A DNA stretch of 64,000 nt from Planctomycetota bacterium (GTDB lineage: Bacteria; Planctomycetota; JACOTG01). A model generated the notes under the pieces. It was not told the origin of the DNA, did no database searches, and saw only the letters and a list, made by a program, of their open reading frames with translations. The stretch spans positions 1,810 through 65,809 of the forward strand of contig JACOTG010000079.1 in assembly GCA_016178505.1 (NCBI GenBank), written 5' to 3'. The position numbers and the translations under genes are program-made. Shown here piece after piece: positions 13,779 to 37,086 of the stretch; within the stretch, counting starts at the first letter, position 1; each line of letters starts with the position of its first letter.

Positions 13779-13876
13779 AGGCCGTGACTCCCCCCAACGC
13801 GCGGAAGTGGTGCACGCCTGCGGAGACGGCGGTTCATCTACTCGGGCCCGGCGCGCTGACGGTTCGCGTCGCGTCG

Positions 13877-15049
13877 CTATTTCGGCTCGAGCCCGGCGGC
13901 GCGAAGCGCTTTGCGCAATGCCTTCTCGTCGAAGCCGACGCCGCGCCAGAGAACGCTGCCGTCTTTTCCGATGAGGTAGTTCGTCGGGAACGTGCTGATG
14001 CCGAGCTTCAGAACGTTCGCGTCGTCACGTGGAACGGCGATGGTGTCCCACGAGTACTTCCCCGCTTTCCAGTGATCGAGGATCGCCGGCGCGGCATCGA
14101 GCCCGGGGTTCACCGAGAAGACGACGAAGTCCTGCGACGCGAGATCGCGGCTCAGCTCGGCGAGGTGTGGAAACTCCACACGGCACGTACTTCAGTGCGA
14201 GAACCAGAAGTTCAGGAGCACGATCTTGCCGCGGTAGTCGGAGAGCTTCAGACGTTTGCCGGCCGTCGGCGAGTCGCCGCCGATGTCGGGCGCGGCGGCG
14301 CGCACTGCGAGGAGGATTTCTTCGGGGCTCTTCGTGCCGTCGACCTCGACCGCGGCCGCGGGGCGACGAAACACGAACGTCTCCGCGTCGAGCTTCGGCG
14401 ATGCGTCGATCGAGCGAACGTCGAACTCGAGATGCGCGCCGTCGCTGCCGGCACCGATGTCCTCCACGATTCGTCGAATGGCGCCCGTCTTCGTCGAGAT
14501 CGAAAGCGACAGTACGTCGTTCGGCATCTTCATCGTGACGACGGTGCATGCCTCGCCGGCCACGTCTGCCTCCGACGTCGTTGCGCTCCCGAGCCGGTCT
14601 TTCCACGGCGCAGCGGTCTTGCCCGCGACGATCGCCGGCGCGTCGAAGTACGCCTGCGTGAACAAGGCCAACCCGGTTCCGGCGAGCTGGAGGATCGGTG
14701 CGGCGTCCGGCTCGATCGGCGTCGCCGAGTACGACTTCGATCCCTCGAAGTACGTCCAGAATTGCTTGCCGTCCGCGAGGCAGAAGATGCCGCCTTTGCC
14801 TCCGCCGGGATAGACGAAGTCGTAGCGCGCGAACGACGGACGCTTCATCGCGAACTGAAGCGTGAGATGATCCGCGGGCTGATCGCCGAACTTCTGCGAG
14901 CACTCGCCGGCGACGCGCACGGCATCGGCCTTCGCGAACGAGGCGAGCATCGCATCGAGCGCCGCGGACGCCGGCGGCGCTGATGGGCCCTCGGCGTGCG
15001 CGCCGACCGCGACCCCGAGCACGGCGCACGTGATCCACACTCGCGTCAT
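13877..15049 (-). CDS. Candidate selenoprotein: a secreted TlpA/ResA-like thiol:disulfide oxidoreductase (N-terminal domain of about 280 aa of unknown function plus a thioredoxin fold). An in-frame TGA at 14192-14194 aligns with the first Cys of the CxxC motif, giving U-S-T-C.
   Basis: ORF 14192..15277 ends ...GKIVLLNFWFSH at a TGA. The in-frame downstream ORF 13877..14179 begins STCRVEFPHLAELSRDL...TNYLIGKDGSVLW. Joined, the protein reads NFWFSH-U-STCRVEFPHLAEL. The TlpA consensus is NxWASWCxPCRxExPxLxEL, so Sec replaces Cys1 of CxxC. The signal-peptide start is MTRVWITCAVLGVAVGAHA at 15049. A SECIS-like hairpin starts 10 nt 3' of the UGA. Confidence 0.7.
14165..14181 (-). ncRNA. Putative bacterial SECIS hairpin (cis mRNA element) for the UGA at 14192-14194
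   Basis: The mRNA reads 5'-UGA AGUACGUGCC GUGUGGA-GUU-UCCACAC-3'. This is a perfect 7-bp stem with a small apical loop containing G and U. It begins 10 nt after the UGA, which is the spacing expected for a bSECIS. Confidence 0.5.
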
Positions 15050-15593
15050 CCTGGACGCCCCTACGCTTCGCATTTCGAACGGCCTCGAGAGTCGCGAACG
15101 AGTTCGGCTCTTCGAAAGGTAGGCCGCGAGGCGCATTCCGGATTCGAATGATTTGGTTTCTCGTGCGACGTCGACCCATGCGTTCGAGCGCGTTGCCGCG
15201 GTTTCCCAGCACTCCGATGCGGTTCTTGGCGTCCGGCAATCGAGCGAACATGGGCTCGGCACGGTCGCAGGCTGCAAGGGCTTCCGGATAGCGGCGGAGC
15301 CGGCACAGTGCAGTCGAGCGATCGTGATCGATGTGCCTCAGGTTCGTTTCGAGGTGGCAGAGCGTCGCCGCGCAATCGAGCTCGTGAAAAGCTTCTTCGT
15401 CCCGATGCATCTCAGTGAGGATAGCCCCGCGGGCGCACGCGGGCGCGCCCACGTCCTCGTCGGACCGCAGGTCTCCGTCGAGGGCCTCCTCGTTTCGTCC
15501 GAGAGCGACGAGGGCCGCAGCGCGATTGTGCTGCACCCGAACGCGGTTCAACTCCAAGTCACGATCCTCGCGAGTGTGTGCGAAGAGGGATGG

Positions 15594-18500
15594 CTATTGA
15601 ATGCGCAGCAGCACGGCGTTCGTCACGCTGAAGCCCGTCGAGTTGCCCGCGCCGAGGTCGCGGACGAGCCCCTGCATGAGGAACGCAGATGTCCGTCCGA
15701 CTCCGCTCGCGCGATTGATCGACCATGGCACGGTCGGCGGCGCGTGCAGCTCGGTCACGCCGCGGCACAGGATCGTCGGCAGCGTCGAGCTTCGCAGGCA
15801 GCGGAAAGGCTGCGGGCTCAACGACCCGTTGAGCGGCGTCGGGTCGACGACGTGACCGAGCGTGGCGCCGTGTGCGGAGAGATCGTGCGGACTCGCGCTC
15901 GCGCCGCGCCAGACCCAAAGGACGTATCGGCCGCCCGTCGCCGGGCCCGCCGGCGATGGATCCATCGCCAGCGTGATCGGCGCGCCGATCGCGACGTCGA
16001 CCTCGCGCGTCGCGCCGGTTCCCGCCGAGCCGTTCACGAAGAAGACGTCGGCGCGGCCGCTGCCGCAGACGTTCACGTCGCCGACGCGCGCGGCCGTCAC
16101 GCGATCGAGATAGGCGTAGCTCGCGGGGAGCGCCCCGCTGCCGTTCGAGTTCGTCACCGTCACGTCGACCGTGCCGCTCCCCGCCGGCGTGCGAACGGTG
16201 ATGCGATCCGGTGTGACGGCCAGCACCGTGCCCGGCGTCGAGCCGAACAGCACCGTCGTGTCGCCGACGTTCGTGAAGTTGCAGCCGGCGATCTTGAGGA
16301 CGTCGTCGCCGTCTTCCGATCCGTCGTTCGGCCGCACCGAGACGATCGTCACGTCGCCGACCGAGACGGCGAACGAGCACGAGGCCGAGTTGCCCTGCGC
16401 GTCTGTCGCGGTGCAGTTCACGGTGGTCATGCCGATCGGGAAGAGGCTTCCGGAACTCGGACTGCACGAAACAACGGGGCTCGCGTCGCACGCGTCCGGG
16501 GCGCTCGTGGAGAAGGTTACGATCGCGCCGCTCGAGCTTTGGCACTCGGCGTCGATGAGCGGTGGGCACGAAATCGACGGCGCCGTCGTGTCGCGCACCG
16601 TCACCGTGAACATGCACGTCCGAGTGTTCGCGGGGCTCGCGTGATCGCTCGCCGTGCACGTCACCGTCGTCGGGCCGAACGCGAACGTGCTGCCGGAGAC
16701 GGGCACGCACGAAACCGTGGGGCTCGCGTCGCAGGCATCCGTCGCGCTTGGGGTCGAGTAGTTCACCACCGCGCCCGACGCGCTCGTGCACTCCGCGTCG
16801 ACGCTCGCCGGGCACGTCATCGCCGGCGCCGTCGCGTCGCGGACCGTCACCGTCGAGGTGCATGACGCCGTGTTGCCGTGGCCGTCGTTTACCGTCAGCG
16901 TCACCGTGTTCGCGCCGATGTTCGAGCACGTGAACGCGCTCGGGACGACCGAAACGAGGTTCACGGTGCCGCAGTTGTCTGCGCCCGAGGCGAAGATCTG
17001 CGCGGGCATGATCGCCACGTTGCCCATCGCATCGAGATCCACCGTGATGTCCTGACAATTCACCGTCGGGGGGACGTTGTCGATGACCGTCACGGTCGCG
17101 GTGCACGTCGCCGCGTTACCGTGGCCGTCGTTCACCATCAGCGTCACGGTGTTCGCCCCGAGGTTCGAGCAGGTGAACGTGCTCGGCGTGACCGACTGCA
17201 AGTTCACCGAGCCGCAATTGTCGGAGCCCGAAGCGAAGACCTGGGCCGGCATGACGGCCGCATTGCCGCTGCCATCCAGAAAGACCGTCGCGTTCTGGCA
17301 AATGACGCTCGGCGGGATGTTGTCGACGACCGTGACGGTCGAGTTGCACGTGGCGAAGTTTCCTACGATGTCGGTCACGGTGAGCGTCACCGTGTTCGCG
17401 CCGAGGTTCGAACAATCGAACGTGTTCGGAGCGACGGCGAGGGTCGCGACCTGGCAATTGTCCGTGCTGCCGTTGTCGACCTGCGCCGCGGTGATCGAGG
17501 CGTGCCCGGTCGCGTCGAGGTCGACGCTGATGTTGCGACAGATCGGCGTCGGCGAGATCTGCTCCACGCGAACCTGAACGTCGGTCGCCGAGTAGAGCGT
17601 CTCGAGGATGCAGTCCGGATAGCCGATCACGTCCACGCCCGAGAACGTGCCCGTGCGCGTCGCCGCGCTGAGCACGGTGAACGATTGGCCAGGGACCGGC
17701 ACGAAGCCGTTCACGAAGGTCACCTGCAACGTCCCCGTGAGCGTGGCGGCTCCCGTCACGTCGACTCGATCGTGCTGTGTCCCGGGCGTGGTGCCGCCGA
17801 TCTCGATCTCGAGCCGGCCGGTCGCGGTCTGTGGGTATGGACCCGTGAACGTCTCGATCCCGATCGGCGAGCCGGGCCGCACGATCGCCGCATTCGAGAA
17901 GGTCGTGCCCGCACTGTCGATGGTGCCGTTTCCGCTGATGATGCCGCTGCCGCTGTTGGTCAGGGTGCCTCCATTGACGTCGAGGACGCGCCCCGCCGAG
18001 ATCGCAATCGTGCCGGCGTTGTCGAACGTCGGCGTCGTCGTCGATTGCGTGACGATGAGGTTGCCGCCCACGATGTCGATCTCGCCGCTCGATTCGTTGA
18101 CGTGGTCGGCCGAGGCCTTGTTGATCGTGACCGGAAACTGGATGTCGACCCGGCCCCGGTTGTCGAGCTGAGCCGTGAGAGTCCGCGTTCCCGTCGTGCC
18201 GGCGGGAAACGAGATCAATCCGTCGGTCTGATTCACGAGCGATCCGGCCGACACCGTGAGCGTCACGTCTCCCGCGAGAGCCGACGCATTGACCAGCCGA
18301 ATCTCTCCGTGGTTGGTGAGCGTCGTGCCGTCGGCGACGGTCAGGGAAACTGTTCCGAACCCGGATCCTCCCTCGAAACTCAGGAGCGCGCCGGATCGAT
18401 TGTCGAAGGACGAGTTGATCCGGAGGTTGGAGCCTCCGCGGATCACGTAGGTCGCGCCGGAGTCGTTGACCACGGGGGCATTCATGCGTCCGCCGGTTTG

Positions 18501-20267
18501 CGTGATCACCGTTTGGTTCGTGAGCGTAGCGAGCCCGCTCACGTCGGCGCAGTTTCGGAATTTCAGCTCGGCCAGCGTGTTCGTGAAGGGGACGTTCACG
18601 TTCGCGAGCGAGAGGCCGTTGAAGTCCAGCGTGCCCGCGCCCGTGATCGAGCCGCCGGCGGCGAACGTGAACGTCCCGGAAGCGCCCAAGTTGGGGACGG
18701 TCGCCACGGTGGCCGCCCCGGCAATCGTGATCGCGCCCGAGTTCGTCACCACGTTGCCCAGCATGTTGATGTTCAACGTGCCGCCGCTGACGTCGATCTG
18801 CCCGGTATTCACGTTATTGGTGCTGCCGGAGAGCGGCTCCCAGCTCGCATTCCGGTCGACGTCGAATAGGCCCTGATTGTCGAGCGCTGCCACGAGGCGA
18901 CGATTCGTTCCGGCCGTCACCGGCACGCGAATGACGCCATCGGGGGCGTTGACGAGCGTTCCGGCGGATACTTGGAGGACGTCGAAGCTGGAGGCGCTGC
19001 CGAGCTCGATCGTTCCATGGTTGGTAAAACCGCTCGCGATCAGGAGCGTCGTGCCGACCGTTGCCGAGAGTTCGAGCGTCGCGCCGGCCTGGTTCGAGAA
19101 GCCGCCATCGAACCGGGCGTCGGTGAGCGGCGCGTCGACCGTGAGATGGCCCCCACTGGAGTTGACGAGCGCACAGTTCACGTCAACGCCGTTCATCAGT
19201 ACGTCCGTCGGATTGGTGAGCGTGCCCGGACCGTTCACGACCGTCCCGATCATTTGCGCCTGCAGTGCGGCGATCGTGCAGCTCTGTCCGAGATTCCACG
19301 TCAGATCGCCGATTTGCAGGCTTCCGCTTCCGGACATCGAACCCCCGTCCCATTGGAAGATCGTGTTCGTGCCGCCGCCCCCGGCGTGGTCGATGGACAG
19401 CGTCGCGCCCGCAGCAATGGAGATCGTGCCCGTGTTCGTGAAGGTCGTCGGCCCCGGGTTCGCACCGTTGACCAGGTTTATCGACGCCGTTCCTGCGTTC
19501 ACGAAGATGGAGCCCGAGTTCGAGTGAACGGCATCGACTCGAGTGATCGTCGTCGTGGCAGCGAGGTTGATGACGCCCCGATTGTCGATCGACGCCGTGA
19601 GGAGGCGCGTTCCGCCGGCGCCGACGAGCGAGTTCACGACACCGCTCGACGAGTTCGTGAGCGTGCCGTTGTTCACCGTCAGAGTCGAGCTGAAGACCGA
19701 GCCGCTGGTCATCTCGAGCGTGCCATCGTTCGTGATGCTGCCGTCGAACGTCAGGGTCACCGGCGCCGACGCGCTCGACTGGACTCGAAAAACGCCGCCG
19801 ACCGCATTCGTGAAGGAGCCGTTCACGTCGACGTTGGCATTGCTGAGCCGCGCCACGAACAGCCCCGAGTTCGTGAACGCGGCGTTGATCGTGAGCGCGT
19901 TCACGCTGGCCGACTGATGCTCGAACACTCCGTGCGTCCCCACGGAGCTCGCGGTCGGGCCATTCAGGGTGAACGTGCGGCCTGCGGGAACGACGAACGT
20001 CTGCGTTCCGCTTCCCCCGCCGAGAACGAGCGAGATGACCGCCACGTTCGCGTCCAGCGTGACCGTGTAGTCTCCGTCGAGTACGATCATGCACTCGTCG
20101 GACGGCGCCGGTACCCCGCCGCCCCAGTGCGCGGCATTGTTCCAATTGCCGCCGGCCGGATTGGTCCAGACGCGCGTGATGGCGAGCGCCTCTGCCGACC
20201 CGAGCACGACGAGACCGCACGCTGCGAGCAGGCTCACGAACGCGAATCTCTTCCCCGATGCGAGCAT
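15594..20267 (-). CDS. Giant secreted adhesin-like protein (1557 aa): an N-terminal parallel beta-helix-type repeat region, multiple HYR/SprB-like Ig repeats and a C-terminal IPT/TIG domain
   Basis: A signal peptide (MLASGKRFAFVSLLAACGLVVLGSAEALA) is followed by Gly/Thr/Asn-rich beta-helix repeats. Near-identical about 80-aa repeats follow (DNCG.VNL.SV.PS.FTCSN.GANTVTL.VNDGHGN...C..TVTV.DN.PP). A TIG-like domain (VTIVSVRPNDGSEDGDDVLKIAGCNF) sits at the C-terminus. Confidence 0.8.
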   Translation of the reverse strand: MLASGKRFAFVSLLAACGLVVLGSAEALAITRVWTNPAGGNWNNAAHWGGGVPAPSDECMIVLDGDYTVTLDANVAVISLVLGGGSGTQTFVVPAGRTFTLNGPTASSVGTHGVFEHQSASVNALTINAAFTNSGLFVARLSNANVDVNGSFTNAVGGVFRVQSSASAPVTLTFDGSITNDGTLEMTSGSVFSSTLTVNNGTLTNSSSGVVNSLVGAGGTRLLTASIDNRGVINLAATTTITRVDAVHSNSGSIFVNAGTASINLVNGANPGPTTFTNTGTISIAAGATLSIDHAGGGGTNTIFQWDGGSMSGSGSLQIGDLTWNLGQSCTIAALQAQMIGTVVNGPGTLTNPTDVLMNGVDVNCALVNSSGGHLTVDAPLTDARFDGGFSNQAGATLELSATVGTTLLIASGFTNHGTIELGSASSFDVLQVSAGTLVNAPDGVIRVPVTAGTNRRLVAALDNQGLFDVDRNASWEPLSGSTNNVNTGQIDVSGGTLNINMLGNVVTNSGAITIAGAATVATVPNLGASGTFTFAAGGSITGAGTLDFNGLSLANVNVPFTNTLAELKFRNCADVSGLATLTNQTVITQTGGRMNAPVVNDSGATYVIRGGSNLRINSSFDNRSGALLSFEGGSGFGTVSLTVADGTTLTNHGEIRLVNASALAGDVTLTVSAGSLVNQTDGLISFPAGTTGTRTLTAQLDNRGRVDIQFPVTINKASADHVNESSGEIDIVGGNLIVTQSTTTPTFDNAGTIAISAGRVLDVNGGTLTNSGSGIISGNGTIDSAGTTFSNAAIVRPGSPIGIETFTGPYPQTATGRLEIEIGGTTPGTQHDRVDVTGAATLTGTLQVTFVNGFVPVPGQSFTVLSAATRTGTFSGVDVIGYPDCILETLYSATDVQVRVEQISPTPICRNISVDLDATGHASITAAQVDNGSTDNCQVATLAVAPNTFDCSNLGANTVTLTVTDIVGNFATCNSTVTVVDNIPPSVICQNATVFLDGSGNAAVMPAQVFASGSDNCGSVNLQSVTPSTFTCSNLGANTVTLMVNDGHGNAATCTATVTVIDNVPPTVNCQDITVDLDAMGNVAIMPAQIFASGADNCGTVNLVSVVPSAFTCSNIGANTVTLTVNDGHGNTASCTSTVTVRDATAPAMTCPASVDAECTSASGAVVNYSTPSATDACDASPTVSCVPVSGSTFAFGPTTVTCTASDHASPANTRTCMFTVTVRDTTAPSISCPPLIDAECQSSSGAIVTFSTSAPDACDASPVVSCSPSSGSLFPIGMTTVNCTATDAQGNSASCSFAVSVGDVTIVSVRPNDGSEDGDDVLKIAGCNFTNVGDTTVLFGSTPGTVLAVTPDRITVRTPAGSGTVDVTVTNSNGSGALPASYAYLDRVTAARVGDVNVCGSGRADVFFVNGSAGTGATREVDVAIGAPITLAMDPSPAGPATGGRYVLWVWRGASASPHDLSAHGATLGHVVDPTPLNGSLSPQPFRCLRSSTLPTILCRGVTELHAPPTVPWSINRASGVGRTSAFLMQGLVRDLGAGNSTGFSVTNAVLLRIQ
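16840..17480. repeat. About three tandem 240-bp near-identical coding repeats (HYR domains) inside the adhesin gene
   Basis: The antisense ORF translations 16786..17055 and 17077..17577 are near-identical (LPWPSFT.SVTVFAP.FE.VN.LG...EPQLS.PEAK). The sense-strand protein shows repeated NCG.VNL...TCSN.GANTVTL.VNDGHGN blocks. Confidence 0.6.
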
Positions 20268-20737: not shown

Positions 20738-21349
20738 TCATCCGGCCGTGCGCACGAGCTCGTTGAACTTCCCCCACGCGCGGAAGAAGATCGATCGCGC
20801 CGTAACTTCCTTGGTGAAGCCCATCGCGTCGGCGATCTCCTTGAACGACATGCCGCACATCTTCCGCAGTACGATCACCTCGCGATAGCGATCGTCCAAT
20901 CGAAGGAGCGTCGCCTCGAGCTTCGCTTCCAGCTCGCGCCCGATCGCGACTTCACTCGGCGTGGGCTGGAGCCCGGGGAGCATCGATTCGGCGAGCGTCG
21001 ATCGCCCGCAGTCCGCGAAGAGCGGCGCATGACCACCGCCCCGCTTCTTCGCCTTCGTGCGCCGGATGTGATCGCGCACGTTGTTTTCGGCGAGCCGCGC
21101 GAGCCAGTATCGGAAGCTCCCCTCCGTTCGCTGGTCGCTGCGCTCGAGCGTCTGAAACGCCTCGAGTAGTGACTCCTGGACGATGTCGTCGAGATCACCG
21201 CACTGTGCGAGCGGCCGGCCGAGCGTCAGCGCAACGATTTGGCGAACCCAGGGCAAGTACCGTGCGAGCAGGTCGTTCAGCGCCGCACGGTCGCCCTCGC
21301 GAGCCGCACGGAGCTGCACGAGGGTCATTCCCAATTCGTCGTCAGACAT
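20738..21349 (-). CDS. ECF-family RNA polymerase sigma factor (sigma-70 regions 2 and 4), located upstream of the adhesin gene on the same strand
   Basis: Translation MSDDELGMTLVQLRAAREGDRAALNDLLARYLPWVRQIV...DIVQESLLEAF...VIVLRKMCGMSFKEIADAMGFTKEVTARSIFFRAW. The ATG at 21349 is the likely start. The longer track ORF reaching 21640 has an implausible N-terminus. Confidence 0.85.
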   Translation of the reverse strand: MSDDELGMTLVQLRAAREGDRAALNDLLARYLPWVRQIVALTLGRPLAQCGDLDDIVQESLLEAFQTLERSDQRTEGSFRYWLARLAENNVRDHIRRTKAKKRGGGHAPLFADCGRSTLAESMLPGLQPTPSEVAIGRELEAKLEATLLRLDDRYREVIVLRKMCGMSFKEIADAMGFTKEVTARSIFFRAWGKFNELVRTAG

Positions 21350-21748
21350 GTCTCCGTCACGCGGCTGGATCGGCCGCTCTCCGGGGTGCCAGTTTATGCG
21401 GGAAGCCAGCGACGCGGTAGCCCCTGCGGTCTTCCCGGTGCAACGCTTTGCGACGAGTAGACGCTTCGAGAAGGCGCGCCCCCGAATCTCGATCACCGCG
21501 AACGTCGCGCGAAACGTGAGGAGATCATAGAGAATCAGGCCAAACGCACAGACGTCGGTCCGCGTCGATGCGTCCTTCGACCTGCTCGGGCGCCATGGAG
21601 AGCGGCGTGGGCCGGCTGGATGCTCTGGGACGCCGGGCACTAGCGCCGAGTTGGTCAGTCACTCACTGAGCGTGTCGCCGGATACGTCACGTGTCTTGCG
21701 CGACGCGACGGGGCCGACGACGCTCGCTTGGAGTCCTGGGGCGGAAGA

Positions 21749-22507
21749 TCAGTCCTTCGCCGGTTCGGCGGGCGACGCCTCCCCCAACATCCGTCGAGCG
21801 ATCAACTCCTGCGTCGCCTTCAGGATCGCGTCCTTCGACAGAACCGACTTGGGATCGGGTGCGGTGCCCTTCATGGTCGTCTGTGTTTTCGCGTCGCTCA
21901 TCCGGCCCGTGATCATCTTCATCAGCTCGGGATCCTTCATGAGCTGCTGGATCATGATCTCTTTCGCGAGCGCCGTTTTCATCCCATCGTCTTGAAGTGC
22001 GGTCGTCAGCGCCTCGCGCGCGAGCATCGTTTCCTTCATGTCCTTCAGCCTCGACTTGTCGTCGGACTTCGGGGCGGCGTCGGTCGACATCACCATGTTC
22101 CGCGCCATCAGCTCTTGGATCATCGTCTTCATCGCGCTGTCGTACTTCATCATCGCGTCTCTCGTCGCGGTCATTGCTTTGGCGTCAGCCATCATCGCTC
22201 GGACCGGCGTCATCGTCTTCTGGTCGTTCAGCTTCTCGTCCACCATCTTCATCAGATGGTCGTCCTTTACGATGCGTTGAATGGCCAGCTCCTTGGCAAT
22301 CGTCGTCTTCATGCCGTCGTCCTTCAGGAAGGGCACGATCTTCCGTTCGTCCTTCAGTAGGTCCTTCATCTTGGTGCGGTCGTCGTCCTTGACGAGCATC
22401 GGAACCGCTTCGTCGGTTTTGCCGTTCCCAGCGAACGCAACGGCGGGACAGGCCGAAAGGGCGAGGAGCGCGGAGACGGAGACGACGATGCGGAGTCGAT
22501 TCGACAC
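21749..22507 (-). CDS. Secreted Met/Lys-rich protein (252 aa) with an internal tandem duplication. Function unknown; a periplasmic metal (Cu)-binding or chaperone-like role is possible.
   Basis: Signal peptide MSNRLRIVVSVSALLALSACPAVAFA. Methionine content is about 14%. Two related roughly 75-aa halves are present (DDGMKTTIAKELAIQRIVKDDHLMKMVDEKL... and DDGMKTALAKEIMIQQLMKDPELMKMITGRM...). Local GC content is lower than in the neighbouring DNA. Confidence 0.6.
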   Translation of the reverse strand: MSNRLRIVVSVSALLALSACPAVAFAGNGKTDEAVPMLVKDDDRTKMKDLLKDERKIVPFLKDDGMKTTIAKELAIQRIVKDDHLMKMVDEKLNDQKTMTPVRAMMADAKAMTATRDAMMKYDSAMKTMIQELMARNMVMSTDAAPKSDDKSRLKDMKETMLAREALTTALQDDGMKTALAKEIMIQQLMKDPELMKMITGRMSDAKTQTTMKGTAPDPKSVLSKDAILKATQELIARRMLGEASPAEPAKD

Positions 22508-22760: not shown

Positions 22761-24218
22761 GTGGTCGGCCATTCCCTGAATCGATACGGAACGAGGAGTC
22801 GTGAGCGGTTCGAGATCGACTCGAACGCCACCCGATTCGCGGGAGGACCGTTGGAACCTAGCCACTGGCTATTCGTTTGCGCAGCGCTCGCCGTTCTATT
22901 CATCGCCCTCGCCCTCTGGCAGCGCGCGATCGATCGACGACACGCAACGCGCGTCGTCGCCGAGATCCACGATGCTCGCGAGCGCGGCACGAACCGCGCG
23001 ATCGCGCAGCATCCCACCGTCGATCCGTTGCAGTGCATCGGCTGTGGAAGCTGCGTCGCGGCCTGTCCCGAAGAAGGAGTGCTCGGTCTCGTAGATGGAA
23101 TCGCGCACGTCATTCACGCGTCGCGATGCGTCGGCCATGCGCACTGCGAGGTCGCGTGTCCGGTCGGCGCGATCTCGGTCGGACTCGGCGATATCACGAA
23201 ACGGCCCGACATTCCGATCGTCCGGGAGAACCTCGAGTCGACCGTTCCGGGGATCTACGTCGCGGGCGAGCTGGGCGGCATCGCGCTCATTCGCCACGCC
23301 GTCCTGCAAGGCACGCGCGCCGTCGAGGACATTGCGCGGCAGCTTCGCGAGCAACCGGAGCGAGATCGCGACCTCGCCGATCTCCTCGTGGTCGGCGCTG
23401 GCCCCGCCGGTCTTTCGGCCAGCCTCAAGGCGATCGAGTTCGGACTTCGCCACCTCACGATCGATCAAGACGAAGCCGGCGGCACGATCCGCAAGTACCC
23501 GAGGCGAAAGCTGACGCTGACTCAGCCGGTCGAGATTCCGCTTTACGGTCGCCTGACGAAGCACGAGTACATGAAGGAGGATCTCCTTCGACTGTGGGAA
23601 GGAATCGTCCGCGACTTCCAGGTGCCGATTCGACGGCCGGTGAAGCTGCTCTCGCTGCGCGGCGAGAAGCACGCGTTCGTCGCGGAAACGTCGGCCGGCT
23701 TTTTTCGCAGCCGGTTCGTCGTCCTCGCACTCGGACGCCGTGGGACTCCGCGAAGGCTCGGCGTGCCGGGCGAAGAGAGCGACAAGGTCCTCTACCAGAT
23801 CGCGGACGCCGCGAGCTACACGGGGCAGCGAATCCTCGTCGTCGGAGGCGGAGACAGCGCCGTCGAGGCGGCGATGGGCCTCGCAAGCCAGCCCGGCAAC
23901 GTCGTCACGATCTCCTATCGAAAGCAAGCGTTCTTTCGCCTGAAGGCTCGAAACGACGAGCGTGTCCGCGACTTCATGGCAAAGGGGCGCATTCGAGCGC
24001 TCTTCTCCTCGGAGGTGACCGCCATCGAGAACGACTCGGTGACGCTTCGCGCCGAGGACGGCGACCGATCTCGGGAGATTCGCATTCCGAACGATCACGT
24101 CTTCGTCATGGCGGGCGGCGAGCCACCGTTCGCGCTCCTTCGGGAGATCGGACTCGGATTCGGAGCGGACGGATCGAATGCGCCCATCGTCGGCCGGGCG
24201 GCCGTCTCGGTGAGTTGA
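22761..24218 (+). CDS. Membrane-anchored flavo-iron-sulfur oxidoreductase: an N-terminal TM helix, a 2x[4Fe-4S] ferredoxin domain and an FAD/NAD(P)-binding pyridine-nucleotide-disulfide oxidoreductase domain
   Basis: TM helix (HWLFVCAALAVLFIALALW). Ferredoxin motifs (CIGCGSCVAACP...CVGHAHCEVACP). Two Rossmann dinucleotide motifs (IYVAGELGG..., LLVVGAGPAGLSA, ILVVGGGDSAVE). A GTG start at 22761 is assumed. Confidence 0.75.
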   Translation: MVGHSLNRYGTRSRERFEIDSNATRFAGGPLEPSHWLFVCAALAVLFIALALWQRAIDRRHATRVVAEIHDARERGTNRAIAQHPTVDPLQCIGCGSCVAACPEEGVLGLVDGIAHVIHASRCVGHAHCEVACPVGAISVGLGDITKRPDIPIVRENLESTVPGIYVAGELGGIALIRHAVLQGTRAVEDIARQLREQPERDRDLADLLVVGAGPAGLSASLKAIEFGLRHLTIDQDEAGGTIRKYPRRKLTLTQPVEIPLYGRLTKHEYMKEDLLRLWEGIVRDFQVPIRRPVKLLSLRGEKHAFVAETSAGFFRSRFVVLALGRRGTPRRLGVPGEESDKVLYQIADAASYTGQRILVVGGGDSAVEAAMGLASQPGNVVTISYRKQAFFRLKARNDERVRDFMAKGRIRALFSSEVTAIENDSVTLRAEDGDRSREIRIPNDHVFVMAGGEPPFALLREIGLGFGADGSNAPIVGRAAVSVS

Positions 24219-24221
24219 GCC

Positions 24222-25112
24222 ATGAGATCGAAATCCTTGGCGTCGTGGCTCTGGTTCTCCCTCGGCCTTGTGTCGGCGGCCGCCATTGCGCTGTTCGTCG
24301 CGTTTCACTGGGGCTACTACTCGCTTCCCTTCGCCGCGCGACCGCTCGATCCGCGGAACGCGAGCTTGCGCCCGGCGGGATCACTCGGACTTGCGTTCGG
24401 GATCGTGGGCTCCGTCCTCATGCTCTTGAACCTTCTCTATCTCGTGAGGAAGCGCTTCCGCGCGCTCACCGTGCTCGGCTCGCTCCGCGGCTGGATGGGA
24501 TTTCACGTCCTGACCGGCTCGATCGCCGCCGCGCTGATCCTCCTCCACAGTGCATTCCTACCGCGAAGCGCGCTCGCGATCCTCGGCTCGGCATCGCTGC
24601 TCGTCGTGATCGTATCGGGTGTGGTCGGTCGGTTCATCTACGCGCGAGTGCCGCGATCGGTCGAGGGCCGCGAGCTGGAGCTGGAGGAGATCCGTCGCCA
24701 GCTCGAGGCGCATCGGCGCGAGCTGATGACGCTCGGCGTCGATCCTCGATCATCGATCCTCGACCCGCGTTCGCGGTTCACGACGGATCCGACGAAGCGA
24801 ACCGGCTTCCTTTCGACGCTCGGTGTTCTCGCGTTCGGCGATCGCGACGCGCGAGAACAATACGCCACGGCACGCGCGGCCGTGCTCGCGTCCGACGCAC
24901 CGCGCGCGTCGTCGCGCCGGATCTGTCGATTGCTCGGGGAACTCGGTCGCGAGCGTAGCTGGCTCGCCCGTTACGCCGAGCTGCGCTCGCTCATGAGCTC
25001 GTGGCGATTCCTCCACCGCTGGCTCGCCGTCCTCATGCTGGTTCTCGCGGCCTTCCACGTGGCGATCGCCCTGCATTTCGGCGACCTCTGGATATTCCAC
25101 GTGGTGCGCTAG
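24222..25112 (+). CDS. Integral membrane protein with 5 predicted TM helices and conserved intramembrane His pairs. It is a putative di-heme b-type cytochrome (PepSY_TM- or NarI-like electron-transfer subunit).
   Basis: TM helices carry His spaced 13-14 residues apart (GFHVLTGSIAAALILLHSAF; FLHRWLAVLMLVLAAFHVAIALHF; AFHWGYY). The start lies 4 nt after the oxidoreductase stop. The stop TAG overlaps the GTG start of the next gene (TAGTG). Confidence 0.5.
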   Translation: MRSKSLASWLWFSLGLVSAAAIALFVAFHWGYYSLPFAARPLDPRNASLRPAGSLGLAFGIVGSVLMLLNLLYLVRKRFRALTVLGSLRGWMGFHVLTGSIAAALILLHSAFLPRSALAILGSASLLVVIVSGVVGRFIYARVPRSVEGRELELEEIRRQLEAHRRELMTLGVDPRSSILDPRSRFTTDPTKRTGFLSTLGVLAFGDRDAREQYATARAAVLASDAPRASSRRICRLLGELGRERSWLARYAELRSLMSSWRFLHRWLAVLMLVLAAFHVAIALHFGDLWIFHVVR

Positions 25113-27067
25113 TGTTGCTGCATCCACGAGCCCCCCTCGTCGCGGGAACGCTGGCGCTCCTCGGGATCGCCGCCTACTTGGCCGTTTTCGATGCCGCGCC
25201 GGGAGGCTTCACCTCCGCGCATGCTCAGATCCCGGGCGTCTCGCTGCTCGGCAACTGCGACAAGTGCCACTCGCCGGCGGGGCTCGCGAAAGGATGCCTC
25301 GGATGTCACACCGAGATCGCGAACGAGATCGCGGCGAAGACGGGCCTTCACGGCTACTTGTCGAACGAGGGTGAGACGGCGTGCGGCTCGTGCCACGTCG
25401 TGCATGGCGAGAAGGACGATCCGCTCGTCGGCGCCCTCGCGTGGGGCGAGAAGGGTCGCAGCGGCTTCACGCATCCTCACGTCGACTTCCGCCTGGTCGG
25501 GCGACACGACAGTCTGGCGTGCGAGTCCTGTCACGAAATCAAGGACATGAAGCCGTTCGCCCTCCCCGCATTTCCGGCGCTCGTTCGCTCGCACACGTTT
25601 CTCGGGCTTGCACAGGATTGCACGCGCTGTCACGCGGATCCGCACGCGGGTGGACTCTCACTCGACTGTGAGGAGTGCCATTCTCAGGATCGGTTCAAGC
25701 CGGCGGCTCGCTTCGATCACGACACGTACTATCCGCTGCGCGGCGGTCATGCGACCGCGCGGTGCGATCGCTGCCACGTCGTCACCAACGCCGGCGAGCC
25801 CGGCGGAAGCCTGCACTTCAAGGAAGTGCGCGGAATCCGCTGCGTGGAGTGCCACGAGAATCCGCACCGGGTGAACTGGGGGCAGGAGTGCGAGTCGTGC
25901 CACGCGAACGACGGCACTCCATGGACCGCGGCGACCGCCCGCGTGACGCCAGACATCCACGCACTCACGGGCTTTCGCATCGTCTTGCCACACGCCACCG
26001 TGCAGTGTGAGGGCTGTCATCCCGCGAATCTCCCGTTCGCCGCGAGATACCCCGACCCGCGAAGCTCGGACTATCGACGCAACGAAACGCACTGTGACGG
26101 CTGCCACGCCGACGTACACAAGGGTCAGTTCGCGGCAACGCACTCGAGCTGCCTCGACTGCCACGAGGCGACGCACTTCGTTCCCGCACGCTTCGGCTTG
26201 GCCGAGCACGTGACGTTCGCGCTGAAGGAATCGCACGTCGCAGCGCCTTGCGGTGCCTGCCACGAGGTCGACGCGATGACGCAAGTGCGCACGTTCGTTC
26301 CGACCGCGCGCGAGTGCGAGGGGTGCCACCGCGATCCGCATGACGGACAGTTCGCCGCCAGTCCCGGCGGCTGTCGCGACTGTCACGGCGAGACGCACTT
26401 CACGCCGGCGCACTTCAGCGTGACCGATCACGATCACACGTCCTTCCCGCTCGCCGGCGCGCACGCCGCCGTTTCCTGTCGGTCATGTCATCGCGTCGAC
26501 TCCACGACCGCCGTCCGTCGGTTCAAGGACACGACGCGAGAGTGCAAGGCCTGTCATCGGAATCCGCATGGCCCACAGTTCACGACAGAGCTGGCGTCGG
26601 AAGACTGCACGGCGTGTCACCGCGCCGCGTTGGACACGTTCGCGATCCGGCCGTTCGACCACGCCAAGCGCACCGGATGGGCGCTCACCGGCGCACACGC
26701 GACCGCGACGTGCGAGGCGTGCCACGGCGTGCGCAAGTCGACCGACGCGCGAGGCATCGTGGCCAGCGTTCGGGTCTACCGGGACACGCCGAAGACCTGC
26801 GACTCATGCCACCGCGACGTCCACATGGGTCAGTTCCGCGAGGGGGAAAACGTCGCGTGCGAAAGCTGCCATCCCTCCACTCGAACGTGGAACGACCTCG
26901 CGTTCGATCACAACACACAGTCGACGTTCGTTCTCGACGGCGCTCACGCCAAGGTGCCCTGTCAGAGCTGTCACCCGAGCGTGAAGGTCGCCGAGGATCG
27001 ATTCGTCATTCGGTTCAAACCTGTCGGAAGAGAGTGCAAGGACTGCCATGCATTTCCCGAGCGGTAA
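25112..27067 (+). CDS. Periplasmic multiheme c-type cytochrome with about 23 CxxCH motifs (doubled/paired-CXXCH family)
   Basis: Signal/TM segment (LVAGTLALLGIAAYLAVF...SAHAQ). The CxxCH motifs counted directly are CDKCH, CLGCH, CGSCH, CESCH, CTRCH, CEECH, CDRCH, CVECH, CESCH, CEGCH, CDGCH, CLDCH, CGACH, CEGCH, CRDCH, CRSCH, CKACH, CTACH, CEACH, CDSCH, CESCH, CQSCH and CKDCH. The gene is translationally coupled to the upstream membrane protein. Confidence 0.85.
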   Translation: MLLHPRAPLVAGTLALLGIAAYLAVFDAAPGGFTSAHAQIPGVSLLGNCDKCHSPAGLAKGCLGCHTEIANEIAAKTGLHGYLSNEGETACGSCHVVHGEKDDPLVGALAWGEKGRSGFTHPHVDFRLVGRHDSLACESCHEIKDMKPFALPAFPALVRSHTFLGLAQDCTRCHADPHAGGLSLDCEECHSQDRFKPAARFDHDTYYPLRGGHATARCDRCHVVTNAGEPGGSLHFKEVRGIRCVECHENPHRVNWGQECESCHANDGTPWTAATARVTPDIHALTGFRIVLPHATVQCEGCHPANLPFAARYPDPRSSDYRRNETHCDGCHADVHKGQFAATHSSCLDCHEATHFVPARFGLAEHVTFALKESHVAAPCGACHEVDAMTQVRTFVPTARECEGCHRDPHDGQFAASPGGCRDCHGETHFTPAHFSVTDHDHTSFPLAGAHAAVSCRSCHRVDSTTAVRRFKDTTRECKACHRNPHGPQFTTELASEDCTACHRAALDTFAIRPFDHAKRTGWALTGAHATATCEACHGVRKSTDARGIVASVRVYRDTPKTCDSCHRDVHMGQFREGENVACESCHPSTRTWNDLAFDHNTQSTFVLDGAHAKVPCQSCHPSVKVAEDRFVIRFKPVGRECKDCHAFPER

Positions 27068-28316
27068 TCGATCGAAGATCGTTGGCCTGCTGCTCAGCAT
27101 CGCCGTCACGATCGTCGGGCTCAGCTGCGAGACGGTCGTCTCTCGGAACGGGTGGAGCGACGACTGGGGGCCGCTCGTGCCCCATCGCACGTTCCCCGGA
27201 GACTGTGGACTGTGTCACGTCCCGGAGCGATGGGACGTGCTTCGTGCGGATTTCTCGTTCGATCACGAGAAACAAACGGGGCATCCGCTCGTCGGCGCCC
27301 ACGCCGCGGCGGCGTGTCTGCGCTGTCACAACGATCGAGGACCCGTGTCGGCGTATGTCGCTCGAGGTTGCGGCGGCTGCCACCCCGATCCTCACAAGGG
27401 CACGCTCGGGCTCGACTGTTTGCGATGCCACGAAGAGAGCCAGAACACGTGGCGCCCGGGCGGGCTCGTCGCCGACCACGCACGCACGCGATTCCCTCTC
27501 GTGGGGGTCCACGCGGCGACGCCCTGCGAGAGTTGTCACCCGCGCGCGCCAGTCGGTGATTTTCGCGGCGCTCCCGTCGACTGCGATCTCTGCCATCGTG
27601 CGGATCTCGCACGCGCCACGAACCCGGACCACGTCGCGAGCGGGTTGACTCGGGAATGCCAGCGATGCCACACGCCGACGGATTGGTCGCGCGCGACGTT
27701 CTCGCACGCCTCTTTCCCGCTCACCGGCGGCCACAATGGGCTCGCCTGTCGACGGTGTCACACGAGCGGATCGTTCGGACCGGTTGCCTCGGACTGCTAC
27801 GCGTGCCACCGCGCCGATTACGAACGACAGGCGGATCACGTGGCCTCCGGCTTCTCCCACGACTGCCGGGATTGCCACAACACGATCACGTTCAGCGACG
27901 CCGCCATCGATCACTCGGCGTTCCCGCTCACGGGCGGTCACAGTGGAATCACCTGTCGGCAATGCCACACGAGCGGAACGTACGGTCCCATACCGACGGA
28001 CTGCTTCTCTTGTCACCGCGCCGACTACGAGCGGGCACCGAATCACCTGTCCTTCGGATTCCCGCGGGACTGCACGCAGTGCCACAACACGAACACGTTC
28101 ACCGGCGCCACGTTCAGCCATTCAGCGTTCCCGCTTCGCGGACCTCACGACGTCACGTGCACGACGTGTCACCCAGGCGCGAGCGCTGCTTTGTTCACTT
28201 GCATCGTCTGCCACGCCCATGCCCAAAGCTCGATGGACAGTCACCACCGCGGTGTCAGTGGCTACAGCTACGACTCGAATGCGTGCTACCGATGCCATCC
28301 AAACGGTACACATTGA
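27048..28316 (+). CDS. Multiheme c-type cytochrome, probable lipoprotein, with about 16 CxxCH motifs
   Basis: Lipoprotein-like signal (MHFPSGNRSKIVGLLLSIAVTIVGLSC). The CxxCH motifs are CGLCH, CLRCH, CGGCH, CLRCH, CESCH, CDLCH, CQRCH, CRRCH, CYACH, CRDCH, CRQCH, CFSCH, CTQCH, CTTCH, CIVCH and CYRCH. The start overlaps the 3' end of the 23-heme gene by 20 nt. Confidence 0.85.
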   Translation: MHFPSGNRSKIVGLLLSIAVTIVGLSCETVVSRNGWSDDWGPLVPHRTFPGDCGLCHVPERWDVLRADFSFDHEKQTGHPLVGAHAAAACLRCHNDRGPVSAYVARGCGGCHPDPHKGTLGLDCLRCHEESQNTWRPGGLVADHARTRFPLVGVHAATPCESCHPRAPVGDFRGAPVDCDLCHRADLARATNPDHVASGLTRECQRCHTPTDWSRATFSHASFPLTGGHNGLACRRCHTSGSFGPVASDCYACHRADYERQADHVASGFSHDCRDCHNTITFSDAAIDHSAFPLTGGHSGITCRQCHTSGTYGPIPTDCFSCHRADYERAPNHLSFGFPRDCTQCHNTNTFTGATFSHSAFPLRGPHDVTCTTCHPGASAALFTCIVCHAHAQSSMDSHHRGVSGYSYDSNACYRCHPNGTH

Positions 28317-29998
28317 TCGCGAAAGCCGTGACCGTAGGCTGGACAGGCGGCCTCCGGCCGCTTGCAATCGCCTCGTGCCTCGTCGTTGTCCTTTCGGCAG
28401 CCGCAACCGCCGCAGAGAAGACGCTCGACTGTCGCATCACGTACGAGACGCCGGACGGCTTCTACGTCGACGCGGGAGCGACCGATGGACTTCGGCCGGG
28501 AGACGTCGGGCTCGTGAAGCGCGAGTCGACCGATCTCGGCCGCGTCGAAGTCGTCGATGCGTCGAGCAACTCGGCGACCGTGCGACTCGTTTCACAGTCG
28601 GGGCTGTTTCGGCCAAGCACGCTCGACCGCGTGGTCTTCGTCGTCGAGGTCCCAGAGACGAGCGCCACCGAGACAGGCGAGGAATCAGCCGCGGACCGCG
28701 TGGCGAGACTCGCCCATGACGACACGACGTTCGTGCCGCTCCTTGCTCCATTCGCACCGCGCGAGGGCAAGTTCTCGCAGCCGTCGAACGTGTTCCATGG
28801 TCGGCTGCGATTTCGCGAGCAGTTCCAGATCGACTCGAACGGAAAGGAGGACTTCTCACGGTCGCGCGTGGGCACCGAAGGATCGATCGATCGAATCGAC
28901 GGCTCACCTTGGGCATTCGAGTGGTCCGGCGATCTTTCGTATCGATCCGGCTCCGCGTTCTCGGGCTCGTCGGATTACCCGGATGCTCGCGCCGACGTCT
29001 ACCGACTCGCGCTGTTCCGGAAGTTCGAAAGCGGCGATTCCCTCGAGCTCGGGCGATTCCTTCCGGTCCAGCTTCCCGGTATCGGATACGTCGACGGCGT
29101 CGTGGGCGATCTCGTGGCATCGGAGAACTTCCACGTCGGTGGGGTCGCGGGAGTCAAGCCTCGGCGATTCGATCTGTCTCCATCGATCGACGAGCCGACG
29201 GCGGCGATTTACGCGACCGGTGAATTCGGGAAGCGAGGAAACGCGTACTACTCGGGCACGCTCGGCGTGCTCGGCTCCGCATTCAAGGGAAAGGCAGACC
29301 GGCTCGCGCTCCTTGCCGACCAGCGCGCGGATCTCGGATCGAAACTGAGCCTGTACTCGACGAACGAAGTCGATTTCGACGTCGGCGGCGCCGAGACGCG
29401 CAGCGGGCCGCAACTATCCCGCATGGATCTCTACGCGGTGTCGCCGGTGACGACCGAATTCACGCTTCGCGCGGGCGTCGATCACTATCAACGCCCCGAC
29501 ACGGCGGCGGAGCGTGACCTTCTCGATTTCACGGACAATCGATTCTTCGATCGGGGCTACTGGCGCTACTGGGTCGGGAGCAGCGAAAAGTTGCCGCTGC
29601 GATTCGGACTCGACGAAGAAATCGCATTCATCGACGCGCCCGACGAGAACGGCTCGCCGCGGTGGCGCGTCACGATCCGGCGCACGGACACGCTTACGAC
29701 CAACGATTCGATTGCGCTCACGGTGTTCAACTTGGACGGGTCGGATTCCAAGGGACTCGGCGGCCAGCTCGCCGGAGTCTTCCCCGCATTCGATGATCGA
29801 CTGACGCTGCGCCCCGCGATCGATTGGCGATACGCCGACACCGCAGACACCGACACGACCCTCATGGTCTCGCAATTCTCGCTCTACGTCGATTGGTGGT
29901 TTTCGCGCGCCGTGAGCCTCTACGCCGGCGCGATGCAATCGGTCGGTGACGCAATCGACAGCACGCTCGTCGACATGGGATTGGATTTTCGTTGGTAG
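28292..29998 (+). CDS. Putative outer-membrane beta-barrel protein (about 569 aa) encoded directly downstream of, and overlapping, the two multiheme cytochrome genes
   Basis: N-terminal signal-like hydrophobic segment (LAIASCLVVVLSAAATAAEK). About 45 alternating amphipathic beta-strand-like segments rich in Y/W/F/G. C-terminal OMP-type ending ...MGLDFRW with an aromatic terminal residue. The ATG at 28292 overlaps the 28316 stop of the upstream gene. Confidence 0.5.
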   Translation: MPSKRYTLIAKAVTVGWTGGLRPLAIASCLVVVLSAAATAAEKTLDCRITYETPDGFYVDAGATDGLRPGDVGLVKRESTDLGRVEVVDASSNSATVRLVSQSGLFRPSTLDRVVFVVEVPETSATETGEESAADRVARLAHDDTTFVPLLAPFAPREGKFSQPSNVFHGRLRFREQFQIDSNGKEDFSRSRVGTEGSIDRIDGSPWAFEWSGDLSYRSGSAFSGSSDYPDARADVYRLALFRKFESGDSLELGRFLPVQLPGIGYVDGVVGDLVASENFHVGGVAGVKPRRFDLSPSIDEPTAAIYATGEFGKRGNAYYSGTLGVLGSAFKGKADRLALLADQRADLGSKLSLYSTNEVDFDVGGAETRSGPQLSRMDLYAVSPVTTEFTLRAGVDHYQRPDTAAERDLLDFTDNRFFDRGYWRYWVGSSEKLPLRFGLDEEIAFIDAPDENGSPRWRVTIRRTDTLTTNDSIALTVFNLDGSDSKGLGGQLAGVFPAFDDRLTLRPAIDWRYADTADTDTTLMVSQFSLYVDWWFSRAVSLYAGAMQSVGDAIDSTLVDMGLDFRW

Positions 29999-36919: not shown

Positions 36920-37086
36920 GCACGACAGCTTGCCACAGGCCGCCGTGCGCGGCTACGTCACGCGAAGGATCACGGCGATCGCTGCGCCGATCGTCGATCG
37001 ATCCGCCGCGTCCGCGCTCCGGACGCCTCGCATCGCAGGTGCATCGGGGACGGCGGGGCTTTCGGGCGCACGCGGAGGCCTGTAAG

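Follow-up and report, generated by a model that had tools for sequence, protein, structure and literature searches.

A cluster of five consecutive genes, here called g1 to g5, was analysed in a 64-kb stretch of DNA (the window, to which coordinates refer unless another locus is named) from contig JACOTG010000079.1 of a Planctomycetota bacterium metagenome-assembled genome (MAG; GCA_016178505.1). The products are a membrane-tethered flavo-iron-sulfur (flavo-FeS) protein (g1), a putative b-type membrane cytochrome (g2), cytochromes c with 23 (g3) and 16 (g4) heme-binding motifs, and a predicted outer-membrane barrel (g5). From the sequences and structural models we lean, without great assurance, towards reading the five genes as one operon for a trans-envelope conduit of the PCC3 type with a dedicated cytoplasmic entry module, through which electrons would flow outward. 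More specifically, we hypothesise that the cluster is a variant, typical of PVC bacteria (Planctomycetes, Verrucomicrobia, Chlamydiae and relatives), of the predicted PCC3 system; in addition it would carry a flavo-FeS module of NAD(P)H type that is co-conserved and occasionally fused, and a barrel from a family that has no annotation. The initial annotation had proposed a path from a cytoplasmic flavo-FeS protein to an outer-membrane barrel, and as a hypothesis this is kept by the barrel model, the invariant histidines and the co-conservation described below.

The five open reading frames (ORFs) lie on the + strand at 22.7-30.0 kb of the window (G+C ~66%), and their third-position G+C is high, as in real genes. 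g1 (22851..24218, 455 aa) starts at TTG 22851, which is favoured over an alternative GTG start at 22761 (485 aa) by the NCBI annotation and by a GGAGGA Shine-Dalgarno sequence at 22842-22847. Its stop codon is separated by 3 nt from the ATG of g2 (24222..25112, 296 aa), the two genes sharing a reading frame, one stop and one codon apart. The g2/g3 junction is a TAGTG overlap, with the GTG start of g3 (25112..27067, 651 aa) at 25112; g3 overlaps g4 (27048..28316, 422 aa) by 20 nt, and g4 overlaps g5 (28292..29998, 568 aa) by 25 nt. The tight coupling originally described thus stands, overlaps included, apart from the g1/g2 gap, which had been given as 4 nt. These spacings and overlaps, the divergent gene upstream, the unrelated sulfatase downstream and the lack of any excess of terminator-like sites all argue for one transcription unit; in the scanned region, terminator- and promoter-like sites were no commoner than in shuffles. 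NCBI labels g1 as 'NAD(P)-binding domain-containing protein' and g2-g5 as 'hypothetical protein'. The 23 and 16 CxxCH motifs claimed for g3 and g4 were borne out (residue shuffles gave a mean of ~0.25 and a maximum of 3-4), and no other ORF of the window contains two or more.

PCC3 has been defined purely by genomics, as an inner-membrane protein, a periplasmic multiheme cytochrome (MHC) of ~21 hemes, an extracellular MHC and a porin (PMC5566968). The inner-membrane protein has ~300 aa and five transmembrane (TM) helices, with SGxxG on TM4 and WX3HX13H on both TM3 and TM5; it has been likened to a ferric-reductase domain and proposed to act in quinone exchange and Fe(II) oxidation (PMC5566968). 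In S. lithotrophicus ES-1 the four components are encoded by Slit_1446 (inner-membrane protein), 1447 (periplasmic cytochrome), 1448 (extracellular cytochrome) and 1449 (porin) (PMC12016527), and g2-g5 follow the same order. The comparison of g2-g5 with PCC3, including that of the reference strains ES-1 and L. cholodnii SP-6, was made from published descriptions and gene order.

Within the cluster, the 296-aa, five-TM protein g2 carries the inner-membrane-protein signature of PCC3 residue for residue (W91x3H95x13H109, S132GxxG136 and W261x3H265x13H279). Across 47 homologs, down to 23% identity, Y73, G86, W91, H95, H109, G133, G136, R137, W261, H265 and H279 are invariant. The five TM segments and spaced His pairs noted in the initial annotation were confirmed, both pairs being HX13H, and none of the 47 homologs has lost these histidines. 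An AlphaFold2 model (predicted local distance difference test, pLDDT, 90) contains five TM helices and a ~115-residue helical insert between TM4 and TM5. The distribution of Lys and Arg places the N-terminus, the 75-87 loop and the TM4-TM5 insert in the cytoplasm (N-in topology), and on this topology H95 (TM3 pair, 24504..24548) and H265 (TM5 pair, 25014..25058) would lie near the inner face of the membrane, with H109 and H279 near the outer, periplasmic face. This suggests that g2 is a putative di-heme b cytochrome, with hemes at H95/H265 and H109/H279. The window protein itself scores below threshold against Ferric_reduct (PF01794; 23.3 bits, cutoff 28) and DUF4405 (PF14358; 20.6 bits, cutoff 26.7). 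Among the 47 family members, DUF4405 is matched by 25 (E<=0.01, best 5e-7), Ferric_reduct by 12 and Ni_hydr_CYTB (prokaryotic cytochrome b561) by 10, and several homologs carry a precomputed PF14358 match. A Foldseek search of the g2 model against the PDB returned no significant match (best E 0.8). A profile search recovered more than 1,500 relatives of the PCC3 inner-membrane protein, reaching proteins of Rhodoferax and other Pseudomonadota.

The two cytochromes likewise resemble those of PCC3 in heme number. All 46 Cys of g3 (2x23) fall within CxxCH motifs, at 28.3 aa per heme, and the protein consists of c7-type triheme repeats, matching Cytochrome_C7 (E 2e-24 across 5 stretches). Most of its orthologs in the 36 related loci described below (L001-L036) have 20, 23 or 26 hemes, while 17 and 19 are found in one locus each; the common numbers step by three, equivalent to one triheme unit. 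In comparison, PCC3 periplasmic cytochromes have ~21-27 hemes in steps of three at ~26-28 aa per heme, and those of the Gallionellaceae have 21, 24 or 27, alongside extracellular cytochromes of 10-35 hemes (PMC10734462). In the PVC orthologs of g3 an N-terminal hydrophobic segment runs into a conserved PGxLxxxH stretch with no AxA cleavage site, and judging from sequence this segment is probably an uncleaved membrane anchor. g4 has 32 motif Cys and one extra, the lipobox Cys27 (27126-27128), which is kept in most orthologs and marks the protein as a predicted lipoprotein. Over 33 orthologs, identity is 50-80% in residues 41-240, which hold approximately ten hemes counted from the N-terminus. 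The C-terminal extension varies and brings the total to 10-30 hemes, in line with the variable heme number of the PCC3 outer MHC. With 26-28 aa per heme and enough additional His for bis-His ligation, the hemes of g3 and g4 read as wire-like, and domain searches revealed no recognisable catalytic site in either protein. PepSY_TM and Paired_CXXCH (PF09699), to which the initial annotation had pointed, found no match in g2-g4 when Pfam and NCBIfam were searched.

Several related loci show further variation around the cytochrome genes. In L008 (5185-9907) a 4.7-kb g4 region is split into many overlapping g4-like ORFs, representing either a giant extracellular cytochrome with frameshifts or several tandem paralogs. 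A small extra g4-like ORF with six CxxCH motifs lies directly downstream of the barrel gene in two loci that contain only g4-g5 (L010, 4165-4758; L037, 11603-12160). In L001, from a 9.18-Mb Planctomycetota genome, a 930-aa lipoprotein with 11 CxxCH motifs (13598-16390) is encoded 2 kb downstream of the cluster, with a gene for glutamyl-tRNA reductase (heme biosynthesis) in between.

The g5 protein has a signal peptide, and no family match was found for it in Pfam or NCBIfam, including MtrB_PioB. An AlphaFold2 model built from a 70-sequence alignment (pLDDT 83.3) nevertheless predicts 22 long antiparallel strands, running from residue 167 to the C-terminal ...DFRW and forming a beta-barrel (aa 167-568, 28790-29995). 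This is preceded by a small N-terminal beta domain (aa 42-119, 28415-28648) and a disordered linker. The model matches outer-membrane barrels only, MtrB among them, and the terminal Trp of ...GLDFRW is conserved in at least 90% of the 70 homologs. The proposal that g5 is an outer-membrane barrel is therefore supported by model, signal peptide and C-terminus, its length being 568 aa as opposed to the 569 first given; a soluble periplasmic protein is ruled out by the 22-strand model. A porin of 22 strands has also been predicted for the PCC3 of L. cholodnii (PMC5566968). A profile search with g5 retrieved 1542 representative clusters at E<=1e-3, of which 137 reached E<=1e-30. If the reading of the cluster is correct, g5 would represent a previously unannotated outer-membrane barrel family of ~1,500 representative clusters that has no Pfam model. 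Some members lack the otherwise conserved small beta domain, one being a relative of 474 aa whose match to the profile is confined to positions 122-561; the domain could act as a plug or provide a place for g3 to dock.

The first gene of the cluster has no counterpart in the definition of PCC3. A hydrophobic N-terminal segment of g1 (HWLFVCAALAVLFIALALW, 22863..22928) is followed by a basic WQRAIDRRH stretch, and a hydrophobic helix followed by W-Q/H-R-R is present in 23/23 aligned orthologs, the orthologs being 424-459 aa long. Next is a di-cluster ferredoxin domain (23010..23180). Its motif 1 (CIGCGSCVAACP) is a canonical CxxCxxCxxxCP, with C92, C98 and C102 invariant and C95 present in 22/23 orthologs. 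Motif 2 (CVGHAHCEVACP; 23127-23162, residues 123-134) reads CxGHxxCxxxCP, with C123, C129 and C133 invariant; the site of the second Cys (position 126) is occupied by His in 19/23 orthologs, by Asp in 2, and by Tyr and Ile in 1 each. This suggests either a [3Fe-4S] cluster or a [4Fe-4S] with a His ligand at motif 2, and this second cluster is possibly the one from which electrons exit towards heme b. Of the architecture first assigned to g1, the membrane anchor, the FAD/NAD(P) Rossmann flavoprotein and the first [4Fe-4S] motif hold, while a second [4Fe-4S] cluster is not secure owing to the His in place of Cys.

The flavin/NAD(P)H domain of g1 (23379..24170) contains GAGPAG and GGGDSAVEA Rossmann motifs, a SYRKxxFxRLK stretch and zero Cys. 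The FAD and NAD(P) glycine motifs and a SYR[RK]xxFxR[LI]K stretch are conserved in the 23 aligned orthologs. The protein matches Pyr_redox_3 (E 4e-41) and several Fer4 models, and among solved structures it comes nearest to YpdA/Bdr, thioredoxin reductases (TrxR) and TrxR-type ferredoxin-NADP reductases (FNR). NCBIfam equivalogs all score far below cutoff (TIGR04018 148 bits versus 340; TIGR01292 72 versus 343). A function as thiol-disulfide reductase, as in YpdA/Bdr or TrxR, is ruled out by the lack of Cys in the flavin domain, which is therefore FNR-like, and the most fitting reading of g1 on its motifs is that of an NAD(P)H:iron-sulfur oxidoreductase of FNR-like type.

To determine the distribution of the cluster, a pattern scan using one genome per GTDB species yielded 36 loci, all from MAGs, and their ORFs were searched with the five window proteins. 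The loci belong to Planctomycetota (Pirellulales, Phycisphaerae, Sedimentisphaerales), Kiritimatiellales/Pontiella and Verrucomicrobiota. The complete g1-g2-g3-g4-g5 order is found in 20/36 loci, and the same order cut by a contig end in a further 3; g4-g5 occur alone, despite sufficient upstream sequence, in 7-8, while 4 loci are too short to judge and 1 has an anomalous arrangement. Independent look-ups agreed on the gene arrangement. The claim that g1 and g2 are co-conserved with the cytochromes and the barrel is thus borne out by the 20 complete and 3 contig-cut loci. Since the g4-g5 pair is present wherever upstream sequence exists, it forms an invariant outer-membrane module, with g1-g2-g3 an inner-membrane/periplasmic module that is usually but not always alongside. 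A locus labelled 'uncultured Actinomycetes bacterium' (L016, CAVOUQ010000019.1) carries the g4-g5 module, and the MAG is probably mis-binned or mislabelled.

The g4-g5 module bears on whether the system crosses the outer membrane at all. The cytochromes might instead serve as a periplasmic electron store or as a reductase for soluble substrates, in which case g5 would be an ordinary porin or an anchor for g4. We regard this as improbable, given the strict conservation of g4 with g5, and of their translational overlap, in three phyla. Moreover, the lumen of a 22-strand barrel is large enough for a heme chain, as the 26-strand MtrB holds MtrA, and the conserved decaheme core of g4 with its variable extension fits a design that is partly threaded and partly exposed. 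The 39 hemes, spaced at 26-28 aa each with no recognisable catalytic site, also suit a wire better than a reductase or store.

Among more distant relatives of g2, the relation between g1 and g2 takes other forms. In a low-GC locus (L040) and a Bacteroidota MAG (L044), g2 comes first, followed by g1, an MHC of the 20-heme class and a second MHC, so that g1 and g2 have changed places yet remain adjacent. An Elusimicrobiota MAG (L042, 1978-4230, P0191) encodes a 750-aa g1-g2 fusion followed by two cytochrome genes. In this protein, residues 14-439 share 57% identity with g1 and residues 462-742 share 50% with g2. The fusion also places the catalytic domain of g1 and the N-terminus of g2 on the same, cytoplasmic side. 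By contrast, a high-GC locus (L041) and a Rhodoferax MAG locus (L043) contain g2, then a large MHC and a second MHC, with no g1. The MHC beside g2 has 627 aa and 24 CxxCH motifs in L041, matching g3 at E 7e-60, and 632 aa in L043; here, too, g2 and g3 homologs flank each other, as in PCC3. A hidden Markov model of g5 gave no match to the partial ORF that follows the cytochromes in L041.

These arrangements are central to the principal alternative, in which the conduit is the same while electrons pass via the quinone pool. g1 would then be a pathway-dedicated NAD(P)H:menaquinone reductase similar to type II NADH dehydrogenase (NDH-2), comparable to Ndh2 of the Listeria extracellular electron transfer (EET) locus, and g2 a quinol:cytochrome c oxidoreductase similar in function to CymA, CbcL or ImcH. 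The g1-less loci show that g2 can work with another partner, possibly quinones. Membership of the membrane-tethered g1 in the broad Pyr_redox_2/3 superfamily would also be in keeping with a quinone reductase, as would the quinone reactivity of Ni_hydr_CYTB-type b cytochromes. Quinone exchange has, furthermore, been proposed for the PCC3 inner-membrane protein itself (PMC5566968). However, NDH-2 needs no ferredoxin domain, and the conserved two-cluster relay of g1 points to a protein-to-protein hand-off. The fusion, together with the swapped yet adjacent gene order, argues for a complex of g1 and g2, a two-heme transmembrane stack would be unnecessary if quinol were oxidised at the periplasmic face, and no quinone-site motif was identified. 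We therefore consider quinone coupling unlikely, if the most serious of the competing explanations.

For the conduit with direct hand-off, domain content, the geometry of the invariant His, the barrel fold, gene linkage across phyla and the fusion were computed, and from these we infer the electron path. NAD(P)H would be oxidised at the TrxR/FNR-like FAD domain of g1, tethered by its helix at the cytoplasmic face, and electrons would leave through the two Fe-S clusters. The two b-hemes held between TM3 and TM5 of g2, at H95/H265 on the inner and H109/H279 on the outer side, would then carry them across the inner membrane. At the periplasmic face they would be taken up by g3, probably anchored beside g2 by its N-terminal helix, whose heme wire would span the periplasm. 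The decaheme core of g4 would be lodged in the g5 barrel or on it, leaving the variable extension of g4 to contact the external acceptor, for which Fe(III)/Mn(IV) minerals, humic quinones and partner cells are candidates. NAD(P)H electron export through stacked b-hemes dissipates membrane potential as opposed to building it, and the likely role of the system is thus that of a redox valve, by which anaerobic PVC bacteria that ferment polysaccharides would regain NAD(P)+, and not that of a proton-pumping respiration. Such a valve is akin in purpose to the flavin-based EET of Listeria and in design to NOX.

The direction of flow follows from established bioenergetics. On the negative side of the membrane the NAD(P)H/NAD(P)+ couple has a potential of -0.32 V, and Fe(II)/humics lie at about 0 to +0.3 V. 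With an NAD(P)H entry module only outward flow is feasible, because inward flow would be uphill twice, in redox potential and against the membrane potential in passing from the positive to the negative side. Reverse flow for metal oxidation, which the initial annotation had allowed for, is thus thermodynamically unlikely with NAD(P)H as the cytoplasmic partner. This bears directly on a further alternative, the uptake of electrons from Fe(II), minerals or a cathode, with g1 and g2 delivering them to cytoplasmic NAD(P)+ or ferredoxin; such uptake has been hypothesised for PCC3 in Gallionellaceae. It was indeed in iron oxidisers that PCC3 came to light, and it is common in them (PMC5566968, PMC10734462); multiheme conduits of the Mto/Mtr type can, moreover, run either way (PMC10734462). 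Nonetheless, the cluster has no energy-coupling subunit, its hosts are PVC bacteria in which the neighbouring genes are of heterotroph type (sulfatases, glycosyl hydrolases and others), and g1 is absent from the only two classical-PCC3-looking loci examined (L041 and the Rhodoferax locus L043). Electron uptake thus appears very doubtful, and both it and a purely periplasmic role are less likely than quinone coupling.

For outward export, we tentatively suggest, conscious that the idea may well prove wrong, that the cluster encodes a quinone-independent, NOX-like 'electron exhaust' in PVC bacteria, Bacteroidota and Elusimicrobiota. This would consist of a dedicated, NAD(P)H-oxidising flavo-FeS protein docked or fused to a di-heme b protein, a ~40-heme chain and a barrel, and the PCC3 inner-membrane protein would be a trans-membrane di-heme carrier and not a simple quinone-site protein. 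If true, fermentative polysaccharide degraders could dump reducing equivalents directly on minerals, humics or partner cells.

A number of points weigh against outward export through a PCC3-type conduit. PCC3 itself has been called 'functionally unverified' (PMC12442390), and the case for the conduit as a whole is built on sequence, predicted structure and gene context. NAD(P)H as the donor of g1 is deduced from fold and motifs. The g1-g2 contact could reflect adjacency plus a single fusion ORF, and this ORF might stem from a sequencing error at the stop codon, the two genes being in frame. The proteobacterial relatives do without g1, and all 36 loci come from MAGs.

The cluster differs from PCC3 in several respects: PCC3 was defined without a flavo-FeS gene, whereas g1 is here the integral, co-conserved first gene; the hosts are PVC bacteria as opposed to Proteobacteria; and the barrel family shows no detectable similarity to the L041 partial ORF mentioned above. 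A comparable combination is found in clusters of Supplementary Table 6 of He et al. 2017, which comprise an MHC, a 5-TM protein with double HX13H and a redox protein, in some cases of 412-425 aa, near the size of g1 orthologs. These clusters differ in lacking both porin and outer cytochrome, and their inner-membrane proteins have 192-310 aa and their cytochromes 7-18 hemes. Pfam families are not given for the 'other redox protein' in the supplements (PMC5566968).

Other conduits are more distant. There is no family-level match to MtrCAB, MtoAB or PioAB: TIGR03508 scores 38 bits with g3 and 25 with g4 against a cutoff of 192, and MtrB_PioB is absent. Their barrel has 26 strands as compared with 22 in g5, and the inner partner of Mtr is the quinol dehydrogenase CymA. 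For Geobacter Pcc (OmaB-OmbB-OmcB) and Ext, compared by description only, the general logic of a porin plus two cytochromes is shared. Porin-MHC clusters of Verrucomicrobia have a periplasmic cytochrome with 8 hemes and a porin with 20 strands or more, with no inner-membrane or flavoprotein part reported (PMC5615132), and 'PCC operons in Kiritimatiellaeota bins' have been reported (bioRxiv 10.1101/2020.04.01.018762). These come from the same superphylum and habitats and place a barrel beside MHCs; as far as can be judged from their descriptions, some may be the g4-g5 module.

The inner-membrane half has its own parallels. The ferric-reductase-domain enzymes NOX, FRE and STEAP have the two stacked b-hemes predicted for g2, and share with it the double HX13H. 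Their dehydrogenase is a C-terminal domain of FNR fold, as opposed to the TrxR-fold protein of the present cluster, which is encoded separately save for rare fusion and has a ferredoxin domain interposed; in addition, g2 has 5 TM helices versus 6, its acceptor would be a multiheme cytochrome in place of O2 or Fe(III), and it lies below the Pfam threshold. For the Tmc and Hmc complexes of sulfate reducers, as for the present cluster, a single operon encodes an FeS protein in the cytoplasm, a cytochrome b in the membrane and a multiheme c in the periplasm, the last of these having 16 hemes in HmcA. They differ in having HdrD-like CCG proteins, a NarI/HdrE-type cytochrome b and a proposed inward flow, with no flavoprotein and no outer-membrane module. 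NCBIfam HmcA and TmcA matches in the window proteins were insignificant. Finally, DUF4405, MsrQ-like and PepSY-like cytochromes are small proteins with four central conserved His, and binding of heme b has been demonstrated for one DUF4405 protein (PMC11334425). These pair with ApbE-flavinylated extracytosolic proteins, whereas g2 is paired with multiheme c and a cytoplasmic flavo-FeS protein.

The architecture had initially been regarded as undescribed. This does not hold for g2-g5, which have the signature and order of PCC3, whereas the joining of g1 to a full PCC3-type set and its occurrence in PVC bacteria appear unreported in the literature searched. No paper was found that describes a flavo-FeS gene as part of a PCC3-type cluster. 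He et al. 2017 was the only relevant result of literature searches on 'quinone-independent' EET and on HX13H together with multiheme, and searches on EET in Kiritimatiellota or Phycisphaerae gave only generic mentions of novel PCC or MHC clusters. Surveys note unclassified PCC/MHC clusters in Verrucomicrobia, Kiritimatiellaeota and Planctomycetota without dissecting them. PCC3 is widespread and is regularly cited as a candidate iron-oxidation or EET system, and the cytoplasmic NAD(P)H-type partner of the PVC version offers a clue to it, predicting that g2 is a di-heme relay, that flow is outward and that quinones are bypassed. If correct, EET would also be a trait of anaerobic glycan degraders that are abundant and for the most part uncultured, among them Phycisphaerae, Sedimentisphaerales, Pirellulales, Kiritimatiellales/Pontiella and Verrucomicrobiota. 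There would be consequences for carbon flow, for how fermentation is balanced against respiration, and, in sediments and humic lakes, for the cycling of Fe and humics.

The flanks of the cluster appear unrelated to it. Upstream, on the - strand (20738-22507), a 252-aa protein of unassigned family and a planctomycete-type extracytoplasmic function (ECF) sigma factor (PF07638) are encoded divergently from g1-g5. They are possible local regulators, and are not conserved beside the cluster in the other loci checked. Downstream, a 232-nt gap is followed by genes for a sulfatase, a family 2 (GT2) glycosyltransferase and a YfhO-like protein. None of the flanking genes recurs beside the cluster in the related loci checked, and both the sulfatase and the ECF sigma factor were rejected as parts of the system on the grounds that neither is conserved there. 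Further upstream, the - strand encodes a 1557-aa protein with HYR domains (15594-20267, E 3e-31). Further downstream, on the + strand (37039-40797), a 1252-aa protein fuses a CheB methylesterase and a CheR methyltransferase to PAS domains and a HisKA_3/HATPase histidine kinase.

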